This document shows positions 718-31,466 of a DNA stretch of 64,000 nucleotides, piece by piece. Both the position numbers and the translations under genes were made by a program. The notes beneath the pieces were generated by a model. That model was not told where the DNA came from. It made no database searches and saw only the letters and a list, made by a program, of their open reading frames with translations. Position 1 is the first letter of the stretch; the number at the start of each line of letters is the position of its first letter. The DNA is from Bacilli bacterium (GTDB lineage Bacteria > Bacillota_I > Bacilli_A > ML615J-28 > CAG-313): contig JAFQPO010000014.1 in the NCBI GenBank assembly GCA_017411715.1, forward strand, positions 6,161 through 70,160. The letters run 5' to 3'.

Positions 718-894
718 CTAATTAACTAATCGGTAAAGACTATCAAAGATAGTTTGGTGTTTTTGTTCCCATGCTTTAGCAAGCGAAGCAAATTCGGGAT
801 TTTTAAATGCTTTGGCGTACTCTCTACACTTCTTAATAAGAAATTGTTCATGTGCAAGAGCATCTTCTAAATAAAGTAATTCTTTTTCAGACAT
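718..894 (-). CDS. small Coat_F-like partner protein (58 aa), first gene of a two-gene operon
   Basis: Not in the ORF track (<60 aa). Reads MSEKELLYLEDALAHEQFLIKKC...; AGGAG RBS; stop lies 10 nt before the next start. Confidence 0.4.
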   Translation of the reverse strand: MSEKELLYLEDALAHEQFLIKKCREYAKAFKNPEFASLAKAWEQKHQTIFDSLYRLVN

Positions 895-1034
895 TTCATT
901 TCTCCTTTTTTTATTTGTAATAATATTATTGACATCTTAGGAAATATTATGTATTTTTAGATAAACTTTTATAATTTAAAATATTGCAAAAAATGGTATA
1001 TTATGTTATACTAATATAGAAAGAAGGGACCAAA

Positions 1035-2699: not shown

Positions 2700-2710
2700 G
2701 GAGTGATGAT

Positions 2711-10337: not shown

Positions 10338-12437
10338 ATGGAAAAAAGAATAATTGAATATTTAACAAAATCTGATCTCATTAAACATGATGCTCGTGAT
10401 ATTGCAGAAGGAATCCAAGCAACAACTAGTAGTGAATTTACGGAATTTTCTAAATGTTTGAATAAATTAGAAAATAGACGAATTTTGATTCGTGATAAAA
10501 ATAATCAATTTTCTTTGTTTGATAGGGTTAATTTTACTGAAGGTAAAATTGTTATTAAAGATAAAGGTTTTGGATTTGTTACGAGTTCATTATATGATGA
10601 AGATATTTTTATACCTAAAGGGTATACTTTAACTGCTGTCAGTGGAGATATTGTATTAATAGAAGTAGAAAAATCTCATAAAGGTTTTGAAGGAATTGTT
10701 CAAAAAATAATTAAAAGAGCATATCAATATATTTATGGTACAATTAAAAAAGAAAAAAACTACTTATTTGTATCATGCGATGATTCAAAAATTAATGTTA
10801 TTGTCAAACTAAGTGAAAAAGAATCAAAAAAATATAAAATAGGTGATAAAGTTAAAGCTAAAATTACTAGATACGATTCTAGTGGCTATTGTCATGGGGA
10901 AGTAGTCGAACTAATTGGTAAAAAAGATGATCCGTTTATGGATATTACTATGCTAGTGAATCAATCTGGATTACGTCAAGATTTTTTAGATGAAACCATT
11001 AGATGTGCTAATTCTTTACCAACCGAAGTAGAATTAGAAGAAGTCAAAACTAGAAAAGATATAAGAGATAAATTAATTGTTACTATTGATGGTGCTGATG
11101 CGAAAGACTTTGATGACGCAATAAACGTGGAAAAACTTAATAATGGTAATTATTTATTAGGTGTTTATATCGCAGATGTTAGTCATTATGTAACTCCAAG
11201 TTCACCACTTGATAGTGAAGCATATGATAGATCATTTAGTATATATTTACCTGATCGCGTTATTCCAATGTTGCCTGAAAAATTATCTAATGGACTTTGT
11301 TCATTAAGACCTAATGAAGATCGTTTGGTATTAGCATGTGAAATGGAAATTAATCAAAAAGGCGAGGTAGTGGCCCATGATATTTTTGAAGCGACAATCA
11401 AAAGTAAGGCTCGTTTGATATATCATGAAGTTAACGAATTTTTAGAAGGTAAAAAAACATATAATAAAGATATCGAAGATATGTTAATAAAAGCTAATGA
11501 ATTAGCTAAAATTTTAAATGATAATCGTAAAAATAGAGGATCGCTTGATTTTGAAGTTAAAGAATCAAAAATCACTTTAGATGATAGAGGTAGAACAATA
11601 GATGTCTCTTACTTTGAACGTGGTGAAAGTGAACAAATGATTGAAGAATTTATGTTAAAAGCGAATGAAACAGTAGCTGAAGTTATGAGCTATTTGGAAG
11701 TGCCTTTTATTTACCGCGTTCATGACGAACCAAAAAGCGATAGATTACACATCTTTACAAATATTGCGAGATTATTAGGTTACAAAATTCCTAGAAAGGG
11801 AGTTAATATACATCCTAAGCAATTACAAACATTGTTAATAGATTCTAAAAATAACTCGTATGGCACAATTATTCATAATTTATTGTTAAGATGTCAAGCA
11901 AAGGCTAGATATAGTGATACAAATATTGGTCATTATGGTCTTGCGAGTACTTGTTATACTCATTTTACATCACCAATTAGAAGATATTCTGATTTAATTG
12001 TTCATAGATTAGTCAAAGAATATTATTTACAAAAGGATGCAAATGATATAAATAATGAAGAAGTAGTAGCCTACGTTTCAGAAAAAACTACAGAAACTGA
12101 AAGAGCTATTAAAGAATTAGAAAGAAATGTTGAAGATATGAAAAAGGCAGAATTTATGATGCATCATATAGGAGAAACATTTCAAGGTGTAATTACATCG
12201 GTTGTGAAATGGGGATTTTATGTTCAACTATCTAATACTGTTGAGGGGTTAGTTCACCATTCTACGTTTAATTTTAATGATTACGAATTTGATGAAGATG
12301 CTTTAATGTGGTATTCTCACAAAAAAAATAAACTATACCGCATCGGCGATATAGTTGAGGTTACTGTTGTTAGAGCTAGTAAGTTTTTAAGGGAAATTGA
12401 TTTTATTATAAAGGAAAAAGATAATGAAAAAAAATAA
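10338..12437 (+). CDS. rnr: ribonuclease R
   Basis: RNB-domain motifs (DFDDAI, HYGLAS..YTHFTSPIRRYSDL) and a C-terminal S1 domain. Confidence 0.9.
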   Translation: MEKRIIEYLTKSDLIKHDARDIAEGIQATTSSEFTEFSKCLNKLENRRILIRDKNNQFSLFDRVNFTEGKIVIKDKGFGFVTSSLYDEDIFIPKGYTLTAVSGDIVLIEVEKSHKGFEGIVQKIIKRAYQYIYGTIKKEKNYLFVSCDDSKINVIVKLSEKESKKYKIGDKVKAKITRYDSSGYCHGEVVELIGKKDDPFMDITMLVNQSGLRQDFLDETIRCANSLPTEVELEEVKTRKDIRDKLIVTIDGADAKDFDDAINVEKLNNGNYLLGVYIADVSHYVTPSSPLDSEAYDRSFSIYLPDRVIPMLPEKLSNGLCSLRPNEDRLVLACEMEINQKGEVVAHDIFEATIKSKARLIYHEVNEFLEGKKTYNKDIEDMLIKANELAKILNDNRKNRGSLDFEVKESKITLDDRGRTIDVSYFERGESEQMIEEFMLKANETVAEVMSYLEVPFIYRVHDEPKSDRLHIFTNIARLLGYKIPRKGVNIHPKQLQTLLIDSKNNSYGTIIHNLLLRCQAKARYSDTNIGHYGLASTCYTHFTSPIRRYSDLIVHRLVKEYYLQKDANDINNEEVVAYVSEKTTETERAIKELERNVEDMKKAEFMMHHIGETFQGVITSVVKWGFYVQLSNTVEGLVHHSTFNFNDYEFDEDALMWYSHKKNKLYRIGDIVEVTVVRASKFLREIDFIIKEKDNEKK

Positions 12438-12879
12438 TGAGAGAATAGTATGTCAAAACAAAAGAGCATATCATGATTACTATGTGGAAGATATTTATGA
12501 ATGTGGAATTGCTTTAACAGGAACAGAAATTAAATCTGTTAGACTAGGCAAAGTGAGTTTACAAGAAGCCTATTGTCAAGTTAAAAATAATGAAATGTTA
12601 ATTTATGGTATGCATATTGCAAAATACGAACAAGGTAATATTTTTAATCATGATCCTTTAAGAACTAGAGTGTTATTACTACACAAACGAGAAATTATTA
12701 AGTTGAGTAATTTTGTAGCAAGAGATGGTTATACTTTAATACCATTGAATGTTCATTTTGATAAAAATAGGGCTAAAGTTGATCTAGGGCTCTGTCGAGG
12801 TAAAAAACTATACGATAAGAAAGAAGTACTAAAAGAAAAAGATATCAAACGTAGTATGGAAAAAGATGTTAATTATTAA
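12424..12879 (+). CDS. smpB: SsrA-binding protein SmpB
   Basis: NKRAYHDY...GIALTGTEIKS signature. Confidence 0.9.
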   Translation: MKKNNERIVCQNKRAYHDYYVEDIYECGIALTGTEIKSVRLGKVSLQEAYCQVKNNEMLIYGMHIAKYEQGNIFNHDPLRTRVLLLHKREIIKLSNFVARDGYTLIPLNVHFDKNRAKVDLGLCRGKKLYDKKEVLKEKDIKRSMEKDVNY

Positions 12880-13174
12880 TTTTCTTTTCTAAAATGCGAA
12901 TCTTTTCTTCAAGTTCTTGTATTTTACATAAAAGCGTAGTGTTGTCACTTGTATCATTGTTAGATGATATAGTTTCTTCTTGTGCGTTAAAAGTCAAAAG
13001 GATTTGACCGACTAATTCAAGCCAATTTCCTAATGAGTTTTGTTCGTTAATATTTAAACCAAGTGATAAAATGTAACCAACTAGAGTTCCAACTGTCACA
13101 AATTGAAATGAGGATAAACTATTAATTAGACAAGCAAAATTTTTGAAATATGCTGTAGAATCTTGTTCGTTCAA
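12869..13174 (-). CDS. hypothetical small protein with coiled-coil C-terminus
   Basis: ORF only; convergent with smpB, 3' ends overlap by 11 nt. Confidence 0.3.
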   Translation of the reverse strand: MNEQDSTAYFKNFACLINSLSSFQFVTVGTLVGYILSLGLNINEQNSLGNWLELVGQILLTFNAQEETISSNNDTSDNTTLLCKIQELEEKIRILEKKINN

Positions 13175-13220
13175 ATTACCACCTCATTTAAATTATATTT
13201 AATTATAGGGAGAATATGTA

Positions 13221-13730
13221 ATGAAAGTTTTAAAAAAACAAACTAATTCATCTGATTGTATTGTATGTGGTATGAATAATGAATTAGGTTTAAAAGTACA
13301 ATTTTATGAGATGGAAAATGGATATTTAGTGGGTTGTTTTAAAGGCATTAATGAACATCAAAGCTTTCCAGGTCGAATGCATGGTGGTGTAATATCAGCT
13401 ATTTTGGATGAGGGAATTGGCCGAGCTATTTGGTCTTTTGAACCTAACACATGGGGAGTTACTACGCATTTAAATGTAAAATACCGAAAACCTGTCCCTT
13501 TAAATGAAGAATTAATGTTAATTTCTAAAATAAATGAAAACAAAAAACGATTATTTGAAGGTAGTGGCATTATAGTAAATAAAGAACATCAAATATTAGC
13601 AGAAGCAACAGCAATATTTTTTAAAATGCCACTTGATAAAATTGCTACTGAGAATATCGAACATGATAAAATTGACAAATTATATCCCGATAATGTTAAT
13701 GAAATCGACATAGATGATATAATATTGTAG
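13221..13730 (+). CDS. hotdog-fold acyl-CoA thioesterase (PaaI/YbgC-like)
   Basis: MHGGVISAILDEGIGRA motif. Confidence 0.65.
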   Translation: MKVLKKQTNSSDCIVCGMNNELGLKVQFYEMENGYLVGCFKGINEHQSFPGRMHGGVISAILDEGIGRAIWSFEPNTWGVTTHLNVKYRKPVPLNEELMLISKINENKKRLFEGSGIIVNKEHQILAEATAIFFKMPLDKIATENIEHDKIDKLYPDNVNEIDIDDIIL

Positions 13731-13785
13731 ATAAAAACGGAAAAATTTGATATAATAAATTGTATTTCAATTTACTATATCACAT

Positions 13786-13872
13786 GCGGTTGTGGCGAAA
13801 CTGGTAGACGCGCTACTTTGAGGGGGTAGTGTCTGCAAAGACATGTCGGTTCGAGTCCGATCAACCGCACCA
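13786..13872 (+). tRNA. tRNA-Leu (anticodon GAG), class II with long variable arm, CCA encoded
   Basis: Cloverleaf read manually: acceptor GCGGTTG/CAACCGC, anticodon loop TTGAGGG, T-loop GGTTCGAGTCC. Confidence 0.85.
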
Positions 13873-13994
13873 TTAGATTTGGTCAATAAGTCTTTTTTAA
13901 ATATAATTAAATAAGAGATTTATTGTGTAAATATAGTCCGAAAGGGCTATTTTTTTTATTTTCAGAGCAAAAATATCCTGAAAGATGGTAGGAG

Positions 13995-14090
13995 CTAGTG
14001 GGGATTCGAATAGGGGAGTTGTTCGGACTCGAACTAATTAAAGTATTTTGCATTAGTGGGGACTCGAACCTATAAGAGATAATGGTGGAA
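13995..14090. repeat. family-1 module, partial copy A: degenerate array of tRNA-3'-like units followed by TATAAGAGATAATGGTGG
   Basis: GGGGATTCGAAT / GGACTCGAAC / GGGGACTCGAACC, then the conserved ATAAGAGATAATGGTGGAAAT tail. Confidence 0.6.
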
Positions 14091-14230
14091 ATAAAATTAG
14101 TTTTAGTATATAATATAATTAACTCAACGCTCCGTTGATACGAGGTGTCTTTTTAGTCGCTTCACTTCTATATATTTACTTGATATAATGTTTGTGTAAG
14201 CTTACTAAAAATATATAAGGAGGAATTAAA

Positions 14231-15361
14231 ATGTTAAGAACAGTAGGTTCAACAATTAGAGAGTTAAGAAAGAATAAGAATTTAACTCAAGAAGAATTAG
14301 CAGAAGCTATTAATGTTACACCACAAGCAATTTCAAAGTGGGAGAATAATATTGGTTTGCCAGATATTTCGCAAATAATACCATTAGCAACATTCTTTGG
14401 AGTAAGTACAGATATTATATTAGGAATTGCAGAAAATAATAGAAATGAAGAGATTAAAGAAATTCTAAATGCATGTAATGAAAGAAAACTTAAAAAGGAT
14501 GATATTAATAGCTGGTTGTTAATTCAAGAAACTATAAAGAAATATCCATCTAATTTGGATTTATTGCAAGAAAGTATAGAATATGGGATAGCACTTTCTT
14601 ATAAAGGAAATTATTGTTATAATGAAGAATATGCTGAAAGAATATATAAAGAAACAACTAGACAAGCAGAATTAATTATTAAATATTCAAGTAATGCTAC
14701 TAATATCTTACGTGCTCATATGATTATGGTAATGTTACATTCCTCATTTGGTGATGCAGAAAGTGCAGTAAAACACGCTAATGAATTTCCATGGCGTGCA
14801 GATATGACAGTTCATGCGATGTGTGCATGGATAAATAAAGCTTTTAATGAATTTGAAATAGAAAAAATTAATCTACAAAGGGATTTAGAACAGCATATGC
14901 ATTCATCAATTAATACTTTAGGACTACTAGGTATATCATATGAAAATACTAAAAATTATGATGAAGCATTAAAAATGTATTTTACAATATTGAATATAAT
15001 TAACGAAGTATTTAAAGAAGATGATTATGTACCGGCTTTATATAGATTAGAAATGGGTAACCTTTATGCCATGATTGCTAGAACGTATTTAGAAATGGAA
15101 AATATTGATGAATGTTTGAATTATTTAGAACAAATGGTTGATGTAGAAATTTATCATAATAAGGTAAAAGTAAAAGAATTTAAAATTAAAAATAAATATT
15201 TAGACAAATCAGGCACATATAATTATGCTTATGCTGATTATCGTGCTTTTGATAAAGATAGTGATGTTTTATGTTCACTTGATCTAGAATGTTTCCATTC
15301 TATTAAGGATAATGAAAAATATAAAGAAATAGTAGATAAAGCAAAAAACCATCTTAAATAA
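14231..15361 (+). CDS. HTH-XRE transcriptional regulator with C-terminal TPR-like domain (RNPP/Rgg-like architecture)
   Basis: N-terminus LTQEELAEAINVTPQAISKWEN; about 300-aa helical C-terminus. Confidence 0.6.
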   Translation: MLRTVGSTIRELRKNKNLTQEELAEAINVTPQAISKWENNIGLPDISQIIPLATFFGVSTDIILGIAENNRNEEIKEILNACNERKLKKDDINSWLLIQETIKKYPSNLDLLQESIEYGIALSYKGNYCYNEEYAERIYKETTRQAELIIKYSSNATNILRAHMIMVMLHSSFGDAESAVKHANEFPWRADMTVHAMCAWINKAFNEFEIEKINLQRDLEQHMHSSINTLGLLGISYENTKNYDEALKMYFTILNIINEVFKEDDYVPALYRLEMGNLYAMIARTYLEMENIDECLNYLEQMVDVEIYHNKVKVKEFKIKNKYLDKSGTYNYAYADYRAFDKDSDVLCSLDLECFHSIKDNEKYKEIVDKAKNHLK

Positions 15362-15435
15362 ATAATAAAATAATTTAGAAAAACACTTCACTTTTTTAAA
15401 GTTTTGTTACTATATTAATGAAAGGAGATATCATT

Positions 15436-16992
15436 ATGCAAAATAAAGAACAATTAAAAGAATTAATAGCTAATGAATATTTAAATAGATTCTTAACATT
15501 TTACATAAGTAGAACATCATCAATACAAGATGCTGAAGACTTATCACAAAAGGCTGCCTGTGAATGTTTAGATGCACTTAACCGTGTTGATGAAATAAAA
15601 AATGTTAATGCTTATTTTTGGAGTGTTGCTCATAATGTATATAAGAATTATTTAAATAGAAGAGATAATTATATTCTAGATGATGATTATTGTAAAATGC
15701 AAATTGCAGATATTAGTTCTAAAGAAGAAAGTGAAAAACAAGAATTACATAATGATATTAGAAAATCACTAAGTATCCTTTCAGGTTTATATCGTAAGAT
15801 AATAGTAATGTATTATTATCATGAATTAAAAATTAAAGATATTTCAGAACAACTTACTATTAGCCAAGATATGGTTAAGTATTATTTGTCTAATGGTAAG
15901 AAAAAATTAAAGGAGATTTATAATATGAATAAAGAAATCGGTGAAGTAAGTTTTAATCCTAAAGATTTTTCAATTTATTATTCAGGAATTGACTTTGCTA
16001 GTGTTAATGTATGGGAGTTATTTAAAAGAAAGTTGCCTTGTCAAATTGCATTAATATGTTATGCAAAACCTAAAACAGTTAGTGAAATTGCAAGTGTTGT
16101 TGGATGCAGTAGTTGTTTTATAGAAGATGAACTTTCAATTTTATTAAATGCTGGAGTAATTGTTGAAATAGTAAAAGATAAATATCAAACTAATTTTTAC
16201 ATTATTAGCAAAGTTGAACTTGATGTTGTTGATGAGTTATATAAAAAAATGTATGATGAACATACAAAAGAAGTAATTAAAGTTTTTGATGAACATTTTG
16301 AACAAATAAAACAAACAGGAATTTATAACTATAGTGCAACAGTAGATCAATATAAATGGATATTTGCTGATAGAGTAGCAGATATGGATAGAAGAAATAT
16401 GTTTACTAAAGATTCAGATTATCCTAGAATTTTATCGTGTGGTGCAAGAGGACTAGTGTTTGGACTTGAAGCTCCTACTCCAAAAGGAACTTGCGGACAA
16501 ACACCAACATATTTAAACAATCATACATTATGGGCAAGAGATTTATGGATGATAAAAGGTTATAGTTCAAATCAACCTACTTTAAGAGATAAAAGAACAG
16601 CTCAAACAGTTATTGATGTTTATAATGGCATTATTGATGATAACAAAGAAGAGTTATATGCTTATTTAATTAAGAACAATATTTTAGTAAAAGATAGTGG
16701 CATCTTAAAAACAAATATTGCATATTTAAATAAGGAATTTTTAGAATTAATGAAAACTATTAATAAAGAATTATATATTAAATTAGAGAAAAATACTAAT
16801 GAAATTAAAGAGTATATTACTAAAATAGTTAGCAAATCAATACCTAGTAATTTAAAAGACTATATTAATGGATATGTTATTACACTTATGCAGTTCTTTG
16901 CTGGTAATAAGATTATAGAAGCACTTATTGAAAATGGCTTCTTAAATGATAAAATGAAGAATATACAAATAAGCTATTTTATTGATAAGTAA
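15436..16992 (+). CDS. sigma-70-family (ECF-like) protein with about 340-aa C-terminal extension
   Basis: Region 2 (DAEDLSQKAACE) and region 4 HTH (KDISEQLTISQDMVKYYLSNGKKKLKE); ATG with AAAGGAG RBS; paralog of 25133..26770. Confidence 0.6.
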   Translation: MQNKEQLKELIANEYLNRFLTFYISRTSSIQDAEDLSQKAACECLDALNRVDEIKNVNAYFWSVAHNVYKNYLNRRDNYILDDDYCKMQIADISSKEESEKQELHNDIRKSLSILSGLYRKIIVMYYYHELKIKDISEQLTISQDMVKYYLSNGKKKLKEIYNMNKEIGEVSFNPKDFSIYYSGIDFASVNVWELFKRKLPCQIALICYAKPKTVSEIASVVGCSSCFIEDELSILLNAGVIVEIVKDKYQTNFYIISKVELDVVDELYKKMYDEHTKEVIKVFDEHFEQIKQTGIYNYSATVDQYKWIFADRVADMDRRNMFTKDSDYPRILSCGARGLVFGLEAPTPKGTCGQTPTYLNNHTLWARDLWMIKGYSSNQPTLRDKRTAQTVIDVYNGIIDDNKEELYAYLIKNNILVKDSGILKTNIAYLNKEFLELMKTINKELYIKLEKNTNEIKEYITKIVSKSIPSNLKDYINGYVITLMQFFAGNKIIEALIENGFLNDKMKNIQISYFIDK

Positions 16993-17074: not shown

Positions 17075-17124
17075 TGGTGACTGACCACGGACTCGAACCA
17101 ATAAGAGATAATGGTGGAAATATA
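17075..17124. repeat. family-1 module, partial copy B: single tRNA-3'-like unit (TGGTGACTGACCACGGACTCGAACC) plus AATAAGAGATAATGGTGGAAATAT
   Basis: The unit reverse-complement reads GGTTCGAGTCC-GTGGTCAGTC-ACCA, i.e. T-loop plus acceptor plus ACCA; followed by the -10 TGTGGTATAAT at 17134-17144. Confidence 0.6.
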
Positions 17125-17263
17125 GATAAGATTGTGGTATAATGGGATTAATTCTCAAAAAGTGAGAACACATATCCCTTTCTGTGGGGTGGATTTAAAC
17201 ATTATTTAGTATTATAATATTAGTGTAATTGGCCATTACGATACATTAATAAAGGAGAAAATT

Positions 17264-19175: not shown

Positions 19176-20897
19176 ATGAAAAAGTATTTATTTGTATTTT
19201 TAATTTTGTTGTTATTAACTGGTTGTAATGTTCAAAATAGTCATTCTCATAATCAATGTCCAGAATGTAGCAAATGTATATCTGAAGATTGTAATGGTAC
19301 TGAAAATGAAAAATGTCAAGGACACCAACTAGTACATACACATACTGAATGTCAAGAATGTGGCAAATGTATTGCAGAAGATTGTGATGGAGCAGAAGAA
19401 CTAAAGTGTAGTGGTCACGAACATCATATATATAAATTAACAATAATTGATGAAGATAATTTAATTTATGATAAGCCTACTGAAACAAGTTGTGAATCAG
19501 ATACTAAAATTGTGATGCACTCTCACCCAATAATAGATGCTGATTTAGCAATGTATATAAATGGTGAGTTTCATTCTATTCAAAATACAATAATGGTAAA
19601 CGATGAAACTGTTTGGGAATATTCATTTATAATGCCAGAAAGAGATACTACTATTGAATTTAAGACTCAAACATTAGAATATTTTGATGTAAAAACTGTT
19701 CTTGGTATTCCCTCATTAACAAGAGAAGATATTTTAAGAATAATTTATCATACTATTAATTTAAGTAGCGAACCCATACCGGGTAGTTTAAGAATAGTAA
19801 TTAGTACTACAGATTATGAAGATATTACTTATATGTTATGTTTTTTAGATGCAAATGTGGTTGAAGATAGAAGTAATAATTGGCAAGAGGATGCTGGTAG
19901 TTGTGAGAAGTATTCAATTTGTACAATTGATAAAAAATACGATTTTGAAATAATTAATGGATATATATCAGTTAATAATAAACACTATAAACTTCTAGGG
20001 TATGGACCTGGCATGAGTTATGGAATTATTACTTCTGCTTTTAATACTAATTTAGATTCATATGAGGCATATACATTAGATGGCACAAAAATTGGTGATT
20101 TTAATGGTTTATCTGAATTTGAGTTTTATGAAATTAAGGCTCCTTTAACAGGTGTAGATGATTATGGATATTTAGAAACTGAGTTTGGAAGAATTTATAT
20201 TCACGATTCAAAGACATTTTACATCAAAGATGGCGAAAACTATACTTACTATAAATTAATTTGGGAATGGGAAAAAGACTTTAGCGATATATTTAACAAA
20301 CACACACATACCGAATGTGAAGAATGTGGAAAATGTATAGCAGAAGATTGTAATGGAACTGAAAATGAAAAATGTCAAGGCCATCTTATTATTACTGATG
20401 CAATACCAGTACCTATTACAAGTATTACTTTCAATAATGGAAATGAATTAGAAGAATTTATAAAAAATCATGAAAACTTTAATAAATGGGTCTACATGAA
20501 TGAAATTATTAAAAATAATGAAACTATAAATGTTTATAATAAAAGCTATAGTTTTAATTATGATGAAGAAAAAGATGGCAAATATATTAATCCATATCTT
20601 ACAATAAGTTTCGCATTATATAGTGAAGTATTAGGAACAGATACTGGAGATGACGATGTTTTATATCATTCTATTTCATTTTTAATTAATATTAGACCTA
20701 ATGATTTAAAAGATAACATTAGTTATAAATTTTGCAAATATAGTAATAATAAAAATATGTACAATAACGTAGTGCTTATTTACAGTGGAGATAATGTTAT
20801 TGGAGAGGCATATTATTACACAAAGCTAGATGTTACTAAAAACTGGATAATTGAATTTTTAAATGAAAACTTATTAATGCCAATTAAAATAAAATAA
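19176..20897 (+). CDS. lipoprotein with three Cys-rich repeats (CxxCxKCIxEDCxGxExxKCxGH)
   Basis: Lipobox LLLTGC. Repeats at aa 28-52, 59-82 and 383-406 are near-identical at the DNA level; no recognised domain. Confidence 0.6.
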   Translation: MKKYLFVFLILLLLTGCNVQNSHSHNQCPECSKCISEDCNGTENEKCQGHQLVHTHTECQECGKCIAEDCDGAEELKCSGHEHHIYKLTIIDEDNLIYDKPTETSCESDTKIVMHSHPIIDADLAMYINGEFHSIQNTIMVNDETVWEYSFIMPERDTTIEFKTQTLEYFDVKTVLGIPSLTREDILRIIYHTINLSSEPIPGSLRIVISTTDYEDITYMLCFLDANVVEDRSNNWQEDAGSCEKYSICTIDKKYDFEIINGYISVNNKHYKLLGYGPGMSYGIITSAFNTNLDSYEAYTLDGTKIGDFNGLSEFEFYEIKAPLTGVDDYGYLETEFGRIYIHDSKTFYIKDGENYTYYKLIWEWEKDFSDIFNKHTHTECEECGKCIAEDCNGTENEKCQGHLIITDAIPVPITSITFNNGNELEEFIKNHENFNKWVYMNEIIKNNETINVYNKSYSFNYDEEKDGKYINPYLTISFALYSEVLGTDTGDDDVLYHSISFLINIRPNDLKDNISYKFCKYSNNKNMYNNVVLIYSGDNVIGEAYYYTKLDVTKNWIIEFLNENLLMPIKIK

Positions 20898-20899
20898 AT

Positions 20900-20973
20900 C
20901 AATCAAGCCAGTTAACAACAAAAACGTTAGCTGGCTTTTTAAATAGTAGAAATAAGTGAGGAAATGTGGTATA
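20900..20973 (+). repeat. family-2 terminator/promoter cassette, copy 1
   Basis: GCCAGTTAAC..GTTAGCTGGC hairpin plus TTTTTAAATAGTAGAAATAAGTGAGGAAATGTGGTATAAT. Confidence 0.75.
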
Positions 20974-21055
20974 ATTGATAATATTAAGGGATGAAACCAA
21001 TTGTTGCATTGACTAACTAATACTTAGTGAGTATAATGGTGGTAGAGGTGATAAA

Positions 21056-21591: not shown

Positions 21592-22269
21592 ATGAAGAAA
21601 TTTATAATAGTCATAGTATGTTTGATTTTGATGTTGCTCACAGGTTGTGTTCAAGATTCAAAAAATTCACATAATAGTTGTTTAGAATGTGGAAAATGTA
21701 TAGCTGAAGATTGTAATGGATTAGAAGAGGAAAAATGTCAAGGACATCAAGTAATTCATCAACATATTGAATGCAAAGTGTGTGGTAAGTGTGTAGATGT
21801 GAAATGCGATGGCAAAGAAGATGAAAGATGTAACAAAACTTATCAGGTAACGTTAGAATCGCATCAATATATATCATTTACTGATTCGTTAGAAGATCTA
21901 CAATTTTACATTATTCAAGACTACAGCCAATATATTGAATTCATTGAAAAAAATGAAATTAAGGAAATATATTATGATGAAGAGAATAATATCCATTATA
22001 ATGAAGAAATAGCAAATCAATTTACTGAAGAATTTTTTATTGATAGTGCACTTGTCTTAATATCATATTTTACAGCAACTTCATTAGATGATTTAACTGT
22101 TATAAAAAGTTATGAATTAGAAAATGGTATTTTAAATATAAAATTTGGTGTCCCTAAAACAGATTTAATTCCAAAGAATAATTGTTATTTGGTATATATG
22201 TTTAAATGTGACAAACATATATTAGATGATTTTGTAACAGTAGAATATAAGTTTGGAGTAAAAAACTGA
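21592..22269 (+). CDS. lipoprotein with two Cys-rich repeats (same motif as 19176..20897)
   Basis: Lipobox LLTGC; CLECGKCIAEDCNGLEEEKCQGH and CKVCGKCVDVKCDGKEDERC. Confidence 0.55.
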   Translation: MKKFIIVIVCLILMLLTGCVQDSKNSHNSCLECGKCIAEDCNGLEEEKCQGHQVIHQHIECKVCGKCVDVKCDGKEDERCNKTYQVTLESHQYISFTDSLEDLQFYIIQDYSQYIEFIEKNEIKEIYYDEENNIHYNEEIANQFTEEFFIDSALVLISYFTATSLDDLTVIKSYELENGILNIKFGVPKTDLIPKNNCYLVYMFKCDKHILDDFVTVEYKFGVKN

Positions 22270-22324
22270 CATTGTTAAAAATATTAAATATGTCGGTTTA
22301 TGATGCTCACAAATAAAATAACCA

Positions 22325-22398
22325 ATTCAAGCTAGTTAATCAAAAAACGTTAGCTGGCTTTTTAAATAGTAGAAATAAATGAGGAAATGTGGTATAAT
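22325..22398 (+). repeat. family-2 terminator/promoter cassette, copy 2
   Basis: Near-identical to copy 1. Confidence 0.75.
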
Positions 22399-22422
22399 AT
22401 TTACAAGAAGAGGTTTAATTAA

Positions 22423-24591: not shown

Positions 24592-24820
24592 CTATTGTTG
24601 ATTAAATCATTATATCTCAACATCCTAACCCCATTTTAACACCTGTAGCAGACTTTCAAAAAGCTATTACAAACAAACCAAGGTAAGAAATCAAATGAGG
24701 ATGTGGACCAAATTTGAGACAATTAGACTGTGAGGTAATACTTGCAGTCTTTTCTATTTCTTAAAAAAAAGACTTATAGTCCCATACACCATATAAAAAG
24801 ATAGATATCGTAGCAATTAG

Positions 24821-25048
24821 ACATTTTCTGAAATCTATAAGTCTTCTAGTAAGGCTTATTTTTTTTGCATTTTATATGGTATTTTAGCTAGTTTTAGTTA
24901 GAATACCTTATTTTTTTATACATTTATGAAACATTTAGATTTAAAGACAAGGTGAGACTGACCATGGACTCGAACCATTGACTTACGGGTGTCGAACCTT
25001 TAGTTCTAACGGGATTCGAACCAATAAGAGATAATGGTGGAAATATAT
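24821..25048. repeat. family-1 module, full copy C
   Basis: ACATTTTCTGAAATCTATAAGTCTTC...; terminator hairpin GGTATTTTAGCTA/TAGTTAGAATACC plus T-run; TTTATGAAACATTTAGATTTAAAGACAAGGTGAGACTGACC; three units ending GGACTCGAACC / GTGTCGAACC / GGATTCGAACC; then AATAAGAGATAATGGTGGAAATAT. Confidence 0.7.
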
Positions 25049-25132
25049 TTTAAAAAATAGTATAATTTATTTAAGAAATATGCGAACCATTTTTAAAATT
25101 TATACACTATATAGGTGTAAGAGGTAAATGCT

Positions 25133-26770
25133 ATGAATGAGAAAGAACAATTAATTGAACAACTGGTGGCACAAAAGGATAAAGTATTCTTTTATTGTGT
25201 GAAACGTTGTAATAGTATAATAGATGCTGAAGATTTATCACAAGATATACTGCTTGATATTATGGTTAATATTAACAAAGGTATTAAGATAGAAAACTTT
25301 GATTATTATATTTGGCAAATATGTAAAAACCATTATAGTAAGTATGTAGCTAGAATTGTTAAAGATAGAGATAATATAATGTTTGTTGAAGAAATAGATG
25401 AACCCGGGAATGAACTTTCTTCATTAGACAAACTAATTAATTCTGAAAAACTCGCAATGATTAATGCTGCAATAAAATTATTATCAAGTGATTATTCAGA
25501 AATACTTTATTCATATTATATTGAAGATAGATCGTTATCATTTATAGCAGAAAAATTGAATCTACCTCTTGGAACTGTCAAAAGAAGATTATTTGACATA
25601 AGGAATAAACTTAAGGAGTATTTAAAAATGGAAAGATTAAATGGAAGAAAAGCATTTGTACCTAAAGAATATGAAACACATAGAAGTGGTGGAGCAAGTT
25701 TAAATCCTGAAGAATACACATATGGATTGATCCAACAAAACTTATTAATGCATTCGTATGGTAATCCATGTAGTTTAGAAGATTATTCGTTGGAAATGGG
25801 AATAAGCTTACCATACATTGAAAATATAGTTGATAGTTTAGAGCATGCAACATTATTAATAAAAGATGAAAATGGAAAATATTTAACTAATTTCATAATG
25901 GTAGATAAAAATATAGATCAAAAGGTATTAAAATTAGTTAGACAAAGGGCAAAGGAATATACGAAGTTAATAGTTGAATATTGTAAAAAACATTTTAATG
26001 ATTGGAAAGTTTTAGTCAATAATCCTTTACTTGATGATAATAAATTAATGTGGTCGTATATGTTTAATACTAATAGAAAAGTTGAGTATTTAGATTGCAC
26101 TAAAGAAGAAACCAAAAAAACAATGAGACATCACAGTCATATTGTTGAAGGTGGTAGTTGGGATTTTTGTATGTCAGAAGCTTATGATTCAGAAATAAAA
26201 AATTTCCAAATTAATGAATGTATAGATGGAAATGGTGTGATAGGATTACAAGGATTATTATATCCAGGGCAAAGGAAAATTGATGGTATTAATTCAGAAG
26301 CATTAAAATGTATAAGATGGGATAATAGTGCGAATTGGGATGCTGATTTTGAATTATTTGGATATTTGCTAAAAAATAAAAATATCAAATATTCAGATTG
26401 TGTATATACTCTTAAATCTGCTGTTGATAATATGGTTAAAGAAAACTACTTGCGAATTGAAGATGATACTATAAAATTCAATTTTGTATTATTAGATTTT
26501 GAAAAAGCAACAATTAATAAAGATGATGAATATAGTACTGAATTAATTCCAGCTAAACAAAAAAGAAAAGAAATCACTAATGAAATTATAGATATATTTA
26601 AAGATGTTATTCCTGAATATTTATACAAAGACTTAGATTACATTGCTAATTCATACTTTGTAGCAAATATGAGACAATATGTAGTAATGGCTTTTGAAGA
26701 AGAAGGTTTGATTAAACCAGTTAATGAAAATAGATTTGTATATAATATGTTTTGTTGGGAAAGAAAATAA
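25133..26770 (+). CDS. sigma-70-family (ECF-like) protein with about 370-aa C-terminal extension
   Basis: Region 2 DAEDLSQDILLDI; region 4 SLSFIAEKLNLPLGTVKRRLFDIRNKL; same architecture as 15436..16992. Confidence 0.6.
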   Translation: MNEKEQLIEQLVAQKDKVFFYCVKRCNSIIDAEDLSQDILLDIMVNINKGIKIENFDYYIWQICKNHYSKYVARIVKDRDNIMFVEEIDEPGNELSSLDKLINSEKLAMINAAIKLLSSDYSEILYSYYIEDRSLSFIAEKLNLPLGTVKRRLFDIRNKLKEYLKMERLNGRKAFVPKEYETHRSGGASLNPEEYTYGLIQQNLLMHSYGNPCSLEDYSLEMGISLPYIENIVDSLEHATLLIKDENGKYLTNFIMVDKNIDQKVLKLVRQRAKEYTKLIVEYCKKHFNDWKVLVNNPLLDDNKLMWSYMFNTNRKVEYLDCTKEETKKTMRHHSHIVEGGSWDFCMSEAYDSEIKNFQINECIDGNGVIGLQGLLYPGQRKIDGINSEALKCIRWDNSANWDADFELFGYLLKNKNIKYSDCVYTLKSAVDNMVKENYLRIEDDTIKFNFVLLDFEKATINKDDEYSTELIPAKQKRKEITNEIIDIFKDVIPEYLYKDLDYIANSYFVANMRQYVVMAFEEEGLIKPVNENRFVYNMFCWERK

Positions 26771-26850
26771 AAATGAAGAATATTGTCAGTTAGCTTAGAT
26801 GGTTAACTGACTTTTTTCTTATAAAAGACGTATCATTTATGATGTAATGA

Positions 26851-27077
26851 AACATTTTTTGAAATCTGTAGGTCTTCTAAAAAGAGGATCTATTTATTAT
26901 TTTTATAGACTATATTGCTTGAAATATAGTGAAATAGTCTCTTTTTTTATACATTTATGAAACATTTAGATTTAAATACCTAAGGAGAGCGACCACGGGA
27001 TCGAACCATTGTCTTACGGTTGTTGAACCTTTAATTCTAAGGGGACTAGAACCTATAAGAGACTTAAAATTTGACAC
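26851..27077. repeat. family-1 module, full copy D
   Basis: Same architecture as copy C; units GAGCGACCACGGGATCGAACC / ATTGTCTTACGGTTGTTGAACC / TTTAATTCTAAGGGGACTAGAACC; then CTATAAGAGA and promoter TTGACA..17 bp..TGATATAAT. Confidence 0.7.
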
Positions 27078-27241
27078 TGTATATTTATAAATGATATAAT
27101 ACATTTATAAATATAAAAATGTTGAATATATGTAAGTTTTAAATTTAATTTAACATGTTGTTATTATCATAAAAAGTTGTTTATTAATATTAGACAATTG
27201 TGTTTATTAAGATTTTTTAAGAATTTTTTGAGGAGTAAAAT

Positions 27242-28129
27242 ATGGCAAGTAATAATGAAAAAGGAAAAAAATATGAGGGATTCTCTAAAGAGATATTATT
27301 GTTACAAAATTTAACATGGGATTACGATTCACAAAATAAGAATATTAAGTTTGATAAAGATGTAGAAGATCATAAGATTGAAGGTATTTCTGGTCAAAAA
27401 CATCAAATAGATATACATCTTATTTCAAGTAAAAATCCAGAGTTTCATTTGCTATGTGAATGTAAAGCACATAATCCGGCAGTTGAAAAAACACATGCTT
27501 GCTCATTTGTTACCGTAATTACTGATATTAGAGATAAACATAAAGATTGGAAAATTATTCCTGTTTTTACAGCTGAAGATGGATATCAAAGTGGTGCAAA
27601 AAAAATTTTGCATTATTATAAAATTATTTATTTTGAAATGAAAGACTATAGAAATGTACAAAGAACTTTTAATACTAACATTACCTCAAAAATGCCAAAA
27701 TTTGAAGAACTTAATGGTATATTAGAAGATGGAACTATTGTTGATAGGGATGTTTGCTTAATAAATTATTCAAGAGGTGATAGTTATGGGATAACTAATG
27801 CTATTAAAAGTTTTGAACTTTTTGATAGCAATAATAAGAAAATTGAAAATCTTATAGACTTCACTGGTGAATTTCATACGGGAGATAGATGTATAATGAT
27901 AGATGATTCTGATGAGTTTTATGAAGTGCGTACTAATAAAAAACTTGTTGCGATAAATGGCACTGTAGTTGGGAATACAACATGTAATTTAGGTTCGAGT
28001 CAAACTGTTATCAAATCTAAAGCAGTTACTAATATAATTCTTGATGATGGAAATATATATCGAATTAATAAAGATGGTACATGTGAAAAATATTATGATC
28101 AGGATGAATCAAAAAAGATATTTGAATAG
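27242..28129 (+). CDS. restriction-endonuclease-like (PD-(D/E)xK, Mrr-cat type) N-terminal domain protein
   Basis: GISGQKHQIDIHL...EFHLLCECKAH fits a D..(D/E)xK nuclease core; C-terminal half unassigned. Confidence 0.4.
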   Translation: MASNNEKGKKYEGFSKEILLLQNLTWDYDSQNKNIKFDKDVEDHKIEGISGQKHQIDIHLISSKNPEFHLLCECKAHNPAVEKTHACSFVTVITDIRDKHKDWKIIPVFTAEDGYQSGAKKILHYYKIIYFEMKDYRNVQRTFNTNITSKMPKFEELNGILEDGTIVDRDVCLINYSRGDSYGITNAIKSFELFDSNNKKIENLIDFTGEFHTGDRCIMIDDSDEFYEVRTNKKLVAINGTVVGNTTCNLGSSQTVIKSKAVTNIILDDGNIYRINKDGTCEKYYDQDESKKIFE

Positions 28130-28470
28130 TTTTTTAAAAAAATAATGTTTTTGTAAAAAGAATTTTAAGAAACTTGTAAAATTATGAAACTATATATCGA
28201 ATATAAACTATGATAGCTTTATTAGACTGTATAAAAGTAGTAAATAAGAGCACAATAGAATTCCAATTTAAATTTGATATAATAATTCAAGAATATTTAT
28301 AAAATGCCAGATAGACTATTCTAAATGGCTTTCTTTTACATTAAAATATGAATCAAATGATTTACAAAAATAAATTTATGTGATATAATATATTTGTCAA
28401 TTGGAGAGACACTCATTACTAAAAATGTTATTGACTACATTGTTTATCATAATAAAGGAGGAGACACTCA

Positions 28471-29016
28471 TTGGAAAAAACAGAAGGTAAAAAAACCGTT
28501 ATTGTCATTGATGAGCAAGGTAATAAATTAGAATCTACGTACCCTAAAAGGGCAAAGGGTCTTATTAAGAATGGTAGGGCACGAGTTGTAGATGAAAATA
28601 CTATATGCCTTGTGGACCTACCAAAACATATAATTTTGGAGGAAAATAAAATGAATAATAACAATATAAATTTAGAAGAAAACAAAGAAGTAAAAATTGA
28701 TTTAGCTTACATCATGAATAAGATTGATGAAATTACTAAAATTAATTTGGAATTAGTTAGCAATAAAGATTTAGCTGATATGTCAGTTGTTCTAGGTGCA
28801 AAAAATCCTGTTCAATGCATTTGTGAAACTAATAATAAGATGATTGATTTCTTACAAGATATTTACAAATCACTTCAACCAAAACAAGAATCAGAATTGA
28901 ATACACAAATTATAAATGGTTTAACTAATGCTTTGATGAATGCAATTGAAGAAGAAGCTGACCAATCAGTAATCGCACATATTACTGACACTCTTGCTAA
29001 GTATATTGAAAAGTAA
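28471..29016 (+). CDS. hypothetical protein (TTG start)
   Basis: AAAGGAGGAG RBS; terminator AAGGATTTAGCCGATATGGTTAGATCCTTTT downstream. Confidence 0.4.
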   Translation: MEKTEGKKTVIVIDEQGNKLESTYPKRAKGLIKNGRARVVDENTICLVDLPKHIILEENKMNNNNINLEENKEVKIDLAYIMNKIDEITKINLELVSNKDLADMSVVLGAKNPVQCICETNNKMIDFLQDIYKSLQPKQESELNTQIINGLTNALMNAIEEEADQSVIAHITDTLAKYIEK

Positions 29017-29205
29017 TTAAAAAAATAAAGGATTTAGCCGATATGGTTAGATCCTTTTGTTATTAAGTAAAGCACTTTTTGTTCAGTTGCTAAAATAAGG
29101 TTATTACGACAAAAAGAAACATTTAACACTTTTTATTTTGTAAATTAAGAAAAAAGCACTTTCTGATTTGTAAAACGTTAAAAAAACACTTTTTGTCGTA
29201 ATGAC

Positions 29206-29432
29206 ACATTTTTTGAAATCTATAGGTCTTCTGAAAAGAGGATCTATTTTTTATTTTTAAGGACTATTTTACTTAAAATATAGTGAAATAGTCTCTTTTT
29301 TTACCTGTTTATGAAACATTTAGATTTAAACAATAGGTGAGACTAACCACGGACTCGAACCATTAACTTACGGGATTCGAATGTTAGGTTCTGATGGGAC
29401 TCGAACCTATAAGAGATTGATGATTTGACATG
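29206..29432. repeat. family-1 module, full copy E
   Basis: ACATTTTTTGAAATCTATAGGTCTTC...; hairpin GGACTATTT..AAATAGTCTC plus T-run; units GACTAACCACGGACTCGAACC / ATTAACTTACGGGATTCGAATG / TTAGGTTCTGATGGGACTCGAACC; then CTATAAGAGA and TTGACA..TGGTATAAT. Confidence 0.7.
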
Positions 29433-29646
29433 ATATATTTACTAATGGTATAATATATATAAAGAAATAAAACTTTTTGTCACCTTTTGCTATGTTAAAT
29501 TGTTTTATATATGAAAGGATAAAAGTTCTCTTAATTAGAGATGATATTCTAGTGCATAAATATAAAATATGTATAATCATATAAATAAGTAAAATATTTC
29601 CAACAAAATGGACTTTTATTTGTTATATTAAAAGGAGGTTTATTTA

Positions 29647-30726
29647 ATGAAGAAAATATTAGTTAGTATGTTTTTATTAGTATTTGGATTATGTTTAGTT
29701 GGGTGTGAAAATATTGGTAATAGTAAAACTTATGAATTAACAATTCAAAATCAAACCGAATATGAATTAATAGGAATAAAGAATGAATATAAAGGAGATG
29801 AAGAAGTAGAAATCAAAATGATATATGAAGATGATGTATGTACTTTTGCATTTTTAGATGGTGAATTATTGGGTGAACTAACTGGAATTGATTCAATAAA
29901 ATTTAATATGCCTGCAAAAGATTCAGTATTGACAATCAGTTATTCGGAAGAAATATATAAAGTAAATGTTATTGATAATTTTGACTTAATAGAAGAAGTG
30001 CTTAATGATTATTACGCACCTGAAGAAACAATAATCTTTCATGTATCACATGAACTATATGATAATATTACAGTAATTATTAATGGGAAAGTAGAAGAAG
30101 GAATTGATCCGTTAATTGGAACTAATAACTTCAAAACATATTTAGTTAGAATGTCCGAAGGAGAATGTGAAATAAAAGTAACTGTTAATGGACTAAGTGA
30201 TTACTCATGTAATGATAATTTACATCATTATGAAGAAGAAATAAAAAAAGTTGATAACTCGTATATTAAAGAATCTACGTGTAAATTATGTGGTGAAATA
30301 GTTCAAGAAGAAATAACTAAAATTAAATTAGATACTATAATTTTATATTTTGGTAGTTATTCAGATGATAATTCATTTGTATTATTTGTAAAGGAATATA
30401 ATTTATCAAATAGAAAATATCTAATTATAGATAATGTTGAAGCATATTATGAGATATATCCTAATATTCCACGTATGAATAAAGAATTATTGAGTGATGA
30501 AGAAGCAGATGAATTCTTTAAAAATAATATAATGGTATTACATATAAGATATATTAGTGGTACTTTAGATTTTGTCCCTGTTAATTATTATTATAACACA
30601 ATACTTAATAATATAATTATGGAATATACAAATGATGTTTCTGGTGACTATATAACACAATTTTTAGGTAATACCCTTGATATAATTACAATTCCTAAAA
30701 AGTACTATAATAAAATTAATAAATAA
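29647..30726 (+). CDS. lipoprotein, function unknown
   Basis: Signal plus lipobox LCLVGC. Confidence 0.5.
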   Translation: MKKILVSMFLLVFGLCLVGCENIGNSKTYELTIQNQTEYELIGIKNEYKGDEEVEIKMIYEDDVCTFAFLDGELLGELTGIDSIKFNMPAKDSVLTISYSEEIYKVNVIDNFDLIEEVLNDYYAPEETIIFHVSHELYDNITVIINGKVEEGIDPLIGTNNFKTYLVRMSEGECEIKVTVNGLSDYSCNDNLHHYEEEIKKVDNSYIKESTCKLCGEIVQEEITKIKLDTIILYFGSYSDDNSFVLFVKEYNLSNRKYLIIDNVEAYYEIYPNIPRMNKELLSDEEADEFFKNNIMVLHIRYISGTLDFVPVNYYYNTILNNIIMEYTNDVSGDYITQFLGNTLDIITIPKKYYNKINK

Positions 30727-30729
30727 CCA

Positions 30730-30801
30730 ATCAAAGCTAGTTAACCAAAAAGTTAGCTGGCTTTTTAAATAGTAGAAATAAATGAGAAAATGTGGTATAA
30801 T
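30730..30801 (+). repeat. family-2 terminator/promoter cassette, copy 3
   Basis: AAGCTAGTTAACC..GTTAGCTGGCTTTTTAAATAGTAGAAATAAATGAGAAAATGTGGTATAAT. Confidence 0.75.
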
Positions 30802-30824
30802 ACTTTCATAAGAGGTGCATTAAT

Positions 30825-31348: not shown

Positions 31349-31425
31349 CTAATTAAGTCGGTTAGCCAACTTTGGGTTAGTTGGCTTTATAAATAGTAGA
31401 AATAAATGAGTAAATGTGGTATAAT
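31340..31425 (+). repeat. family-2 terminator/promoter cassette, copy 4 (variant hairpin)
   Basis: AGCCAACTTTGGGTTAGTTGGCT plus TTTATAAATAGTAGAAATAAATGAGTAAATGTGGTATAAT. Confidence 0.7.
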
Positions 31426-31466
31426 AGTTATGCATAAATGATTGTATAAGAAAGGATATTGATTAT

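Follow-up and report, generated by a model that had tools for sequence, protein, structure and literature searches.

A recurrent intergenic module that probably marks the joining of foreign genes to tRNA genes in uncultured gut Bacilli

In this report, we examine an intergenic module of about 210 bp that recurs in a 64,000-nucleotide stretch of DNA from an uncultured Bacilli bacterium of the CAG-313 lineage (contig JAFQPO010000014.1, positions 6,161 to 70,160; hereafter "the window"). The module stands directly behind a tRNA-Leu(gag) gene and again between the genes that follow, and it probably marks where foreign genes joined tRNA genes. The reading that we favour, with a probability of roughly 0.55, is that it is the conserved 3' flank of tRNA and transfer-messenger RNA (tmRNA) genes, reiterated in tRNA-seeded additive islands of low-GC uncultured gut Bacilli, where its copies mark successive acquisitions.

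The three full copies in the window (24822-25031, 26853-27062 and 29207-29416, from the CA before the part termed S1 through the end of ATAAGAGA; see also Table 1) are built in the same order: CA/TTTT(T/C)TGAAATCT..., where the slash denotes the junction at which the module begins; two hairpins, each with a T-run; a segment termed J2; three inverted units that resemble tRNA 3' ends (A, B and C); (T/A)ATAAGAGA; and an outward-facing promoter of the sigma-A type. J2 is the invariant TTTATGAAACATTTAGATTTAAA in all three full copies and a near-invariant 23-mer throughout the clade. The units are contiguous, with lengths of 25 nt (A), 22 nt (B) and 24 nt (C), and the right end of the full copies matches a sigma-70-type promoter at 10-12 of 12 positions. 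Pairwise identity of the three copies is 63-80% over about 290 nt. An initial annotation of this DNA had listed five copies, and all of them were located in the sequence, although their limits required adjustment. The module starts at CA/TTTT, 1-3 nt inside the start that had been quoted, and the first full copy reads ACATTTTCTGAAATCTATAAGTC, two mismatches from the quoted string; the partial copy placed at 13995-14090 is present but begins earlier, at 13873, straight after the CCA of tRNA-Leu(gag); and each full copy has two terminator-like hairpins rather than one. The single-unit copy at 17075 carries neither S1 nor J2. The objection that these copies are chance matches fails, as they are reproduced in related genomes and the string GGANTCGAACC occurs eight times in the window (six times in modules and twice in true tRNAs) against 0.02 occurrences expected from shuffles.

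An exact scan for GGAYTCGAACCWATAAGAGA, with one genome per species, returned 73 loci, about four of which are chance matches. The remaining loci lie in metagenome-assembled genomes (MAGs) labelled Bacilli, Mollicutes, Erysipelotrichaceae, Coprobacillus or "Staphylococcus sp. CAG:324", and several genomes have multiple copies, with up to seven or eight loci each. Among 45 distinct full modules, the mean identity is 82% and the length from CA to ATAAGAGA is 208±2 nt. Conservation reaches 85-100% in J2, the start of S1, the units and the stretch from ATAAGAGA to the -35 element, and is only 40-70% in the hairpin loops and the promoter spacer; within the units, which are 85-99% conserved over their whole length, the non-core parts are as conserved as the shared 11-bp core. 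Pairing in the second hairpin is kept by compensatory changes at eight pairs, and the hairpins, which precede T-runs, behave as terminators. The number of units varies: in 98 arrays from the fetched DNA, there are three units in 51, one in 39, two in 6 and four in 2. These changes are always in register at the cores, with one-unit copies running from the left part of A straight into the last core (the promoter-proximal core is always kept) and four-unit copies being exact duplications. BLAST found no match to the module in phage and plasmid collections. The single match in IMG/VR (IMGVR_UViG_3300023371_002116; locus L074, related loci being designated here by L and a number) is classed as viral and consists of a prophage end, with holin-like genes and two tandem large serine recombinases, plus a host flank that bears the module and a sigma-like gene and is 91% identical to window positions 24817-25570. 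With no match in either collection and the lone IMG/VR copy in a host flank beside a prophage end, we rejected a phage or plasmid origin of the module. Literature searches yielded nothing specific that describes an equivalent.

The placement of the module with respect to tRNA genes is precise. Of the 73 S1 starts, 19 come immediately behind a tRNA or tmRNA gene, and in the fetched loci the module begins at the base next to the CCA of tRNA-Gly(tcc/ccc), His, Leu(gag), Glu(ttc/ctc), Lys, Thr and Arg(cct) genes and of a tmRNA. The distance from this CCA to the last core is fixed, amounting to 186-188 nt where there are three units and to 140-142 nt where there is one. Nearly every terminal tRNA in the fetched loci bears such a flank; the two other tRNAs of the window are without a module. 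Three types of flank can be distinguished: S1-J2; M1, found at 13873 and also after tRNA-Gly(ccc) in L001 and tRNA-Gly(tcc) in L057; and M0, found after the tmRNA of L003. All three finish with inverted tRNA-like units, ATAAGAGA and a promoter. Further, by our own reading of the sequences, they have TCTATARGTCT in common at +11 to +21 from the junction; this string is the 5' arm of hairpin 1, and it is conserved in sequence while the 3' arm varies. The window contains smpB, within the stretch 12424-13872, and no tmRNA gene was detected in it; in L003, a tmRNA gene is followed by the module.

Ahead of the internal copies come, first, the terminator that belongs to the upstream gene and then a segment of 45-110 nt, here called X. 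These segments belong to a few conserved families, every one of which ends in (A/C)CA immediately before the TTTT of the module. Members of the X-b family follow different genes, and X-e is a degenerate tRNA-Gly 3' end. X-a consists of one to four 30-nt tandem repeats (ATGAAACATTTNGTAG... or ATGAAACATTTNGTAGYGTAAA...) in a long hairpin (window 29099-29208; L016, L019, L037, L049 and L065), the closing stem of which covaries (ATTACTAC with GTAGTAAT in relatives versus ATTACGAC with GTCGTAAT). The ATGAAACATTT motif of the X-a repeats also forms J2.

The X-d family bears on the left edge of the module. It represents the 3' end of a gene for a large serine recombinase of 600 aa (Pfam Resolvase, Recombinase and Zn_ribbon) that is carried by an ICE (integrative and conjugative element) with a type IV secretion system pilin, a VirB4/TraG-like ATPase and TnpV. 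The right end of this ICE, ...GCACTGACACA/TT (...ACACA/TT), abuts S1 in L020, L023, L032 and L080. In L029, it abuts an M0 flank, and the same flank follows the tmRNA CCA in L003 and the tRNA-Glu CCA in L002. Because the ICE ends there and the same flanks follow CCA directly elsewhere, we consider the left edge of the module to be a real insertion point. Related loci, and not the window, provide the case of a recombinase-bearing element inserted at a flank that is intact elsewhere, as an attachment site of the attB kind would have it. In a more distant genome, a 75%-identical recombinase abuts a flank with one inverted tRNA-like unit, TAAATAAGAATAAT and a promoter. Large serine recombinases also lie 140 nt (the tandem pair of L074) and about 450 nt (a single gene in L064) upstream of a module, and a recombinase is found near the module in L082 as well as in L020, L023, L029, L032, L064, L074 and L080. 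Signs of a dyad-type attachment (att) site are confined to TCTATARGTCT (+11 to +21) in the right half-sites and a CTAT..C motif in the ICE arm. A motif scan by regular expression, a weak test, gave no credible tyrosine recombinase near modules in the window and about 0.5 Mb of loci.

Several properties of these elements deserve mention in their own right. For want of an earlier stop codon, the large serine recombinase open reading frame (ORF) of L020 (5811-7610) runs across the att junction and on into the flank. The homologues (P0001-P0120) therefore range from 504 to 967 aa, some of them gaining foreign Pfam domains at the C-terminus. The ICE of L020 also encodes a surface protein (1169 aa, 741-4250) with many C..C repeats. 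L028 (4179-4880) and L071 (3044-3688) contain near-identical small serine recombinases of about 200 aa, of the resolvase/invertase type, a few kb from modules and on the opposite strand. A string similar to the X-a motif, GAAACATT, is found in the right arm of the ICE; that it is common to J2, X-a and the ICE arm is a lead noted by eye, without statistical support.

As the initial annotation had supposed, copies of the module bound variable gene blocks beside a tRNA in related genomes. The genes downstream of modules are mutually unrelated, and include XRE/TPR, sigma-like, GNAT, MerR and ArsR genes, hydrolases, lipoproteins and others. The window, L021/L024 and L035 share the smpB-thioesterase flank to the left of tRNA-Leu(gag), but the first genes at this locus differ among them. 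At tRNA-His, L034 has the order tRNA-module-GNAT180-module-GNAT144 and L066 has tRNA-module-GNAT144, such that L034 holds one extra gene plus module; GNAT144, which follows tRNA-His in L066, comes first behind tRNA-Leu(gag) in L021 and L024. Homology blocks common to different genomes end at unit cores. The XRE gene of the window lies behind an M1 module here and behind a three-unit module in L037, with homology beginning at the last core; L038 has a separate module for the sigma-like gene at 15418, with homology stopping at the unit A core; and the L038 junction that is orthologous to the single-unit copy keeps units A and B while its right side is different. An independent 423-kb scaffold reproduces the gene order of the window, as do short contigs of other samples. 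A search for insertion polymorphism of one window cassette, by exact-protein look-up, gave the same strain only.

An important question is what the inverted units are. On the minus strand, each consists of GG-TTCGANT-CC, three further T-stem bases, seven acceptor bases and the discriminator, corresponding to tRNA positions 52-73 (76) with the 5' strand of the T-stem lacking. The reverse complement of the single unit at 17075 reads GGTTCGAGTCC-GTG-GTCAGTC-A-CCA, that is, a 5-nt T-stem, a 7-nt acceptor, the discriminator and CCA in exact register. ARAGORN reports three true tRNAs only, and neither it nor Rfam (at the gathering score or at E<=10) identifies a tRNA in the units; full tRNA genes on the minus strand are ruled out on this basis, and the earlier description of the units as tRNA-3'-end-like sequences that are not tRNA genes holds. 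Nor do the modules match any known RNA family in Rfam 15, even at E<=10. We compared the 13 nt beyond the T-loop of each unit with 55 real tRNA tails from the same clade. Unit C agrees with the tRNA-Asp/Glu tail at 11 of 13 positions, which was equalled by 1 of 2000 shuffles, and the third unit of M1 (U3) agrees with the tmRNA tail at 10 of 13, equalled by 28 of 2000. Judged from these sequences, the likeness of the units to tRNA is well past chance but not uniform among units. It rests on an 11-nt core from the T-loop, a register that is exact, the terminal TGG (CCA) in unit A and the first M1 unit (U1), and unit C. To the eye, U1 (13986-14010) resembles an inverted tmRNA 3' end plus two extra bases. 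Unit B has no match in viral contigs.

The units are inverted relative to tRNA-Leu(gag), with a best match to the tail of that tRNA of 9/13, and GGTTCGA occurs on the plus strand of the window only at 13848 (the tRNA itself) and 27992. Module and tRNA invariably share a strand, and the units in consequence always face the tRNA; they are identical whichever tRNA precedes, and resemble several other tRNAs or tmRNA. Of the explanations offered initially, serial island integration at a tRNA therefore survives, broadly, for the modules and not for the units. As att scars of the adjacent tRNA, the units would have the wrong orientation, they resemble other tRNAs or tmRNA, and they are distant from the CCA/TT insertion junction (140-190 bp).

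Taken together, our favoured reading would run as follows. The 3' ends of tRNA genes in genomes of the clade would seed additive genomic islands. Mobile DNA, exemplified by the conjugative element with a large serine recombinase, would insert at the CCA/TT junction that forms the left edge of the module, and each insertion would push the older flank inward and leave a new flank copy beside the tRNA. Module copies would in this way come to lie between accessory-gene blocks, terminating the block on the left and driving that on the right. Recombination within modules, at the 11-bp T-loop-like cores and in the stretch from ATAAGAGA to the promoter, would reshuffle the genes behind them and alter the unit number. 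Of all this, we observed the anatomy of the module, its spread through the clade, its start at CCA, an ICE end at the same junction and the changes in unit number and context; that the internal copies arose by accretion, and that the unit cores are crossover points, we infer.

Several results weigh against this reading. The left end and the attP site of the ICE were not reached in the 10-kb flanks, and the import of modules by incoming DNA stays conjecture. ORF reading and motif scans detected no recombinase in the island of the window. At 140-190 bp from the insertion junction, the units are too far away for a serine-recombinase att site of 40-50 bp. Units A and B have no significant likeness to the 55 sampled tRNA tails beyond the T-loop, and no real tRNA with the unit A tail was found among those tails or, by exact search with a matching T-stem, in JGI metagenomes. 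The context swaps were observed in MAG contigs, where repeats of about 210 bp could yield chimeric joins. Finally, the high conservation of the module could reflect recent spread instead of function.

As for the role of the units, we tentatively propose that they are protein-binding pseudo-attB half-sites for recombinases that read tRNA 3'-end DNA, each forming a symmetric partner of the real tRNA end. Protein binding at the DNA level is favoured because the whole units are conserved, their spacing is two helical turns and an inverted end that starts with TGG suits a dimeric recombinase. A more ambitious and rather unlikely version would see the whole system as a tRNA-anchored gene-capture platform, integron-like without an integron integrase, in which standardised linkers surround exchangeable single-gene cassettes and the units are recombinase half-sites and crossover points; the linkers of such a platform, an equally doubtful notion, would comprise terminators, pseudo-tRNA 3'-end half-sites, a promoter and, in some genomes, a common leader with a ribosome-binding site.

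Binding by a different protein would lead to another interpretation, a serious rival that we nevertheless regard as rather unlikely: the cores could be direct-repeat sites for a transcription factor that co-regulates the accessory genes from upstream of the promoter, the tRNA likeness being only a matter of ancestry. The factor could be the recurrent XRE/TPR or sigma-like protein, genes for both of which are common downstream, and the iteron-like binding sites suggested in the initial annotation are, from the arrangement of the sequence, possible in the same sense. The three-unit arrays do provide direct repeats in helical phase, with cores 22 and 24 bp apart that end about 15 bp before the -35 element; the register of the last core to the -35 and -10 elements is fixed in both promoter types; the promoter-proximal core is the one always retained in one-unit copies; and conservation of the whole units contrasts with the variable promoter spacer and hairpin loops. 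Yet the units share nothing but the 11-bp core, and conservation outside it is just as high. In M1 and M0 modules, moreover, the units are different and irregularly spaced, the L038 units occur without the ATAAGAGA-promoter part, and a promoter family of the window (D3) has the same -35/-10 region and no units. The exact tRNA register and the TGG (CCA) ends are left unexplained.

A further serious rival, likewise rather unlikely, is that the units are non-functional relics (the 3' ends of minus-strand tRNA genes that were once convergent and have since decayed, or debris of old att sites), hitch-hiking in a flank that is conserved for its terminators, J2 and promoter and was spread recently by gene conversion or horizontal transfer. 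Such an origin would account for the agreement of unit C with the tRNA-Asp/Glu tail and of M1 U3 with the tmRNA tail, for the orientation of the units towards the tRNA, with a terminator region in between, which would be that of convergent tRNA genes, for the free changes in unit number, and for the lack of a predicted structure or a known family. It is difficult to reconcile with unit sequences that are conserved like promoter hexamers across species-level genomes in which nearby unconstrained positions have diverged, or with the fact that every unit is cut at tRNA position 52 and packed head-to-tail, which random decay would not produce.

A structured non-coding RNA in the unit region, the third early suggestion, is not supported, as folding of either strand gave no consensus structure and nothing convincing, and Rfam no match. 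A role for the units in RNA more generally (plus-strand transcripts antisense to tRNA 3' ends, serving as primer-binding site, tRNA sponge or RNase guide, or a minus-strand small RNA with tRNA 3' fragments) is very improbable: the plus strand of the single-unit copy is the exact complement of a tRNA 3' end including CCA, and unit C could pair with positions 52-72 of tRNA-Asp if G-U is allowed, but the units lie between two or three terminators and a promoter, where little transcription is expected, they have no conserved fold and no Rfam match at E<=10, there is no extant tRNA for unit A and units A and B are unlike the sampled tRNAs, and no reverse transcriptase is apparent among the window ORFs (which were not subjected to a systematic domain scan).

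If the accretion of islands at tRNA flanks is the correct reading, the module provides a sequence-level handle on the gain and shuffling of accessory genes (acetyltransferases, hydrolases, regulators and surface proteins) in a large uncultured gut lineage, and this one conserved element would locate islands, their inner boundaries and promoters in any MAG. The same reading suggests an unusual target for the large-serine-recombinase conjugative elements: the exact CCA end of many tRNA genes, beside a flank that mimics tRNA ends in reverse. This could show in what way tRNA-gene DNA is read by a recombinase, enzymes of this sort being sought for genome engineering. Should the units prove to be mere relics, the module would still be a useful island marker in the clade.

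Table 1. Coordinates of the tRNA-Leu(gag) gene, module copies and adjoining elements in the window
Feature	Position	Strand	Details
tRNA-Leu(gag)	13786..13872	+	Proposed seed of the island; ARAGORN, Rfam, sequence
M1-type module	13873..14092	+	First base is the next after the tRNA-Leu(gag) CCA
M1, post-CCA flank			TTAGATTTGG...
M1, upstream ATAAGAGAT	13912-13920		
M1, terminator	13933-13957		
M1, inverted unit U1	13986-14010		Begins TGG; tmRNA-like by eye
M1, inverted unit U2	14011-14034		
M1, inverted unit U3	14049-14070		
M1, right edge	14071-14092		TATAAGAGATAATGGTGGAAAT
Promoter-like site	14086..14114	+	TGGAAA, 17-nt spacer, TATAAT; upstream of XRE/TPR gene 14231-15361 (Pfam domains); sequence reading
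Single-unit copy	17075..17143	+	
Single-unit copy, unit	17075-17099		TGGTGACTGACCACGGACTCGAACC
Single-unit copy, following segment	17100-17121		AATAAGAGATAATGGTGGAAAT
Single-unit copy, extended -10	17133-17143		TGTGGTATAAT
X-b segment	24768..24823	+	Ends ...GCAATTAGACA; immediately 5' of full module 3
Full module 3	24824..25044	+	S1 hairpins 24837-24859 and 24878-24907; J2 24923-24945; A 24952-24976, B 24977-24998, C 24999-25022; right edge 25023-25044
Promoter-like site	25038..25066	+	TGGAAA, 17-nt spacer, TATAAT; for sigma-like gene 25133-26770 (Pfam Sigma70_r4)
Short X-a segment	26827..26854	+	Ends ...GATGTAATGAAACA
Full module 4	26855..27062	+	S1; J2 26954-26976; A 26983-27007, B 27008-27029, C 27030-27053; TATAAGAGA 27054-27062
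Consensus promoter	27071..27100	+	TTGACA, 18-nt spacer, TATAAT, TG in front of -10; for gene 27242-28129
Long X-a segment	29099..29208	+	About 110 nt; closing stem GGTTATTACGACAAAAAG / CTTTTTGTCGTAATGAC; ends ACA
Full module 5	29209..29416	+	S1; J2 29308-29330; A 29337-29361, B 29362-29383, C 29384-29407; TATAAGAGA 29408-29416
Consensus promoter	29425..29454	+	For lipoprotein gene 29647-30726

Some further features of the modules and islands were recorded. In M1, ATAAGAGAT(N)TGTG/TGGTG (here the slash separates alternatives) is found on both sides of the part that holds the terminator and units (13909-13927 and 14071-14092), which hints, from the sequence, that the part between the two ATAAGAGAT-type copies may have been inserted at an ATAAGAGA site. 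ATAAGAGATAAT also occurs 5' of the X-b segment in L056. S1-J2 carries the inverted repeat AAATCTA/TAGATTT; its interpretation as a miniature inverted-repeat transposable element is kept only as a lead, there being no target-site duplication and no transposase. On the minus strand, the right edge can be read as an att-like CCACCA/TTATCTCTTATAGG, again by eye and without statistical support.

A second family of linkers consists of a terminator (AAGCYAGTTAAC...GTTAGCTGGCTT) followed by AAATAGTAGAAATAAATGAGGAAATGTGGTATAAT (20887-20982, 22311-22405, 30721-30808 and 31371-31432). Its promoter part is homologous to the right edge of the module, and it is without S1, J2 and units; its terminator is also located 5' of the X-e segments in L041 and L053. 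A common leader, TAGATAAATTAGAATTT, with a ribosome-binding site follows module promoters and also comes straight after upstream ORF stops (L005, L034, L040, L042, L056 and others); this leader is absent from the window. A short inter-ORF linker (..ATCGAACAGTTAGGAAAATAAGAATTTGA) recurs in the leader-bearing loci, and single ORFs seem to be swapped behind identical leaders. Two lipoproteins of the island (573 aa and 225 aa) have a Cys-rich repeat of about 31 aa (H..C.ECGKCIAEDCNGTENEKCQGH; 19239-19419, 20298-20385 and 21661-21841). Recurrent first genes after modules encode proteins (515-545 aa) whose sigma-70 regions 2 and 4 lie at the N-terminus, ahead of a long C-terminal part of unknown nature (window 15418-16992 and 25133-26770; L038, L055, L067, L073 and L074).

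Comparison with known systems helps to place the module. The plus strand of the single-unit copy, which is exactly complementary to a tRNA 3' end, begins with TGG and lies upstream of genes, recalls the primer-binding site of long terminal repeat (LTR) retroelements; unlike such a site, it is upstream of a promoter, with no apparent reverse transcriptase, no LTRs and no cognate tRNA found. Firmicutes ICEs with large serine recombinases (Tn5397/TndX-like) share with the related loci a recombinase gene at the element end, abutting the att junction, and a conjugation module. They explain only the left edge of our module, which is host flank and not a part of the ICE, and none is present in the window. 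Integron arrays resemble the islands in having co-oriented unrelated accessory genes parted by a recurring non-coding element, with the same gene in different array contexts. Integron cassettes, however, are promoterless, and the separator here, about 210-330 bp long, brings terminators and a promoter with it; we identified no attC-type R''-L''/L'-R' hairpin, and a motif scan by regular expression, a weak test, found no IntI-type integrase. To our knowledge, integrons are essentially unreported in this Gram-positive host lineage.

The pneumococcal BOX elements (boxA-boxB(n)-boxC) and the Correia elements of Neisseria are likewise dispersed, multi-copy, intergenic and sub-modular, with terminator and promoter signals; the internal unit here is present one to four times. 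The module has no sequence relation to them, no transposase or target-site duplication is evident, and it differs from both in being anchored at tRNA 3' ends and in having internal units that mimic tRNA 3' ends. With att scars, the module has in common its location at tRNA 3' ends (13873, and 19 of the 73 S1 starts); we found no direct repeat of the tRNA, and no integrase gene stands beside an att site in the window. Sublocations of integration within tRNA genes have been described (Williams 2002, to the extent that it is cited in bioRxiv 10.1101/2020.12.28.424599). In the tycheposon model, islands grow beside tRNA and tmRNA genes as the tRNA end receives transient elements, which displace earlier content inward (Hackl et al., bioRxiv 10.1101/2020.12.28.424599). 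Islands of that type and those described here have in common unrelated accessory genes beside tRNA or tmRNA genes, insertion at the tRNA end and scattered tRNA-like fragments. In our case, the tRNA-like pieces are inverted, lie head-to-tail and resemble several tRNAs, and the element uses a large serine recombinase at CCA/TT, whereas tycheposons use a tyrosine integrase inside the tRNA. The known kinds to which our observations belong are thus tRNA-anchored islands and modular intergenic repeats, and what is new is this module as a variant of both.

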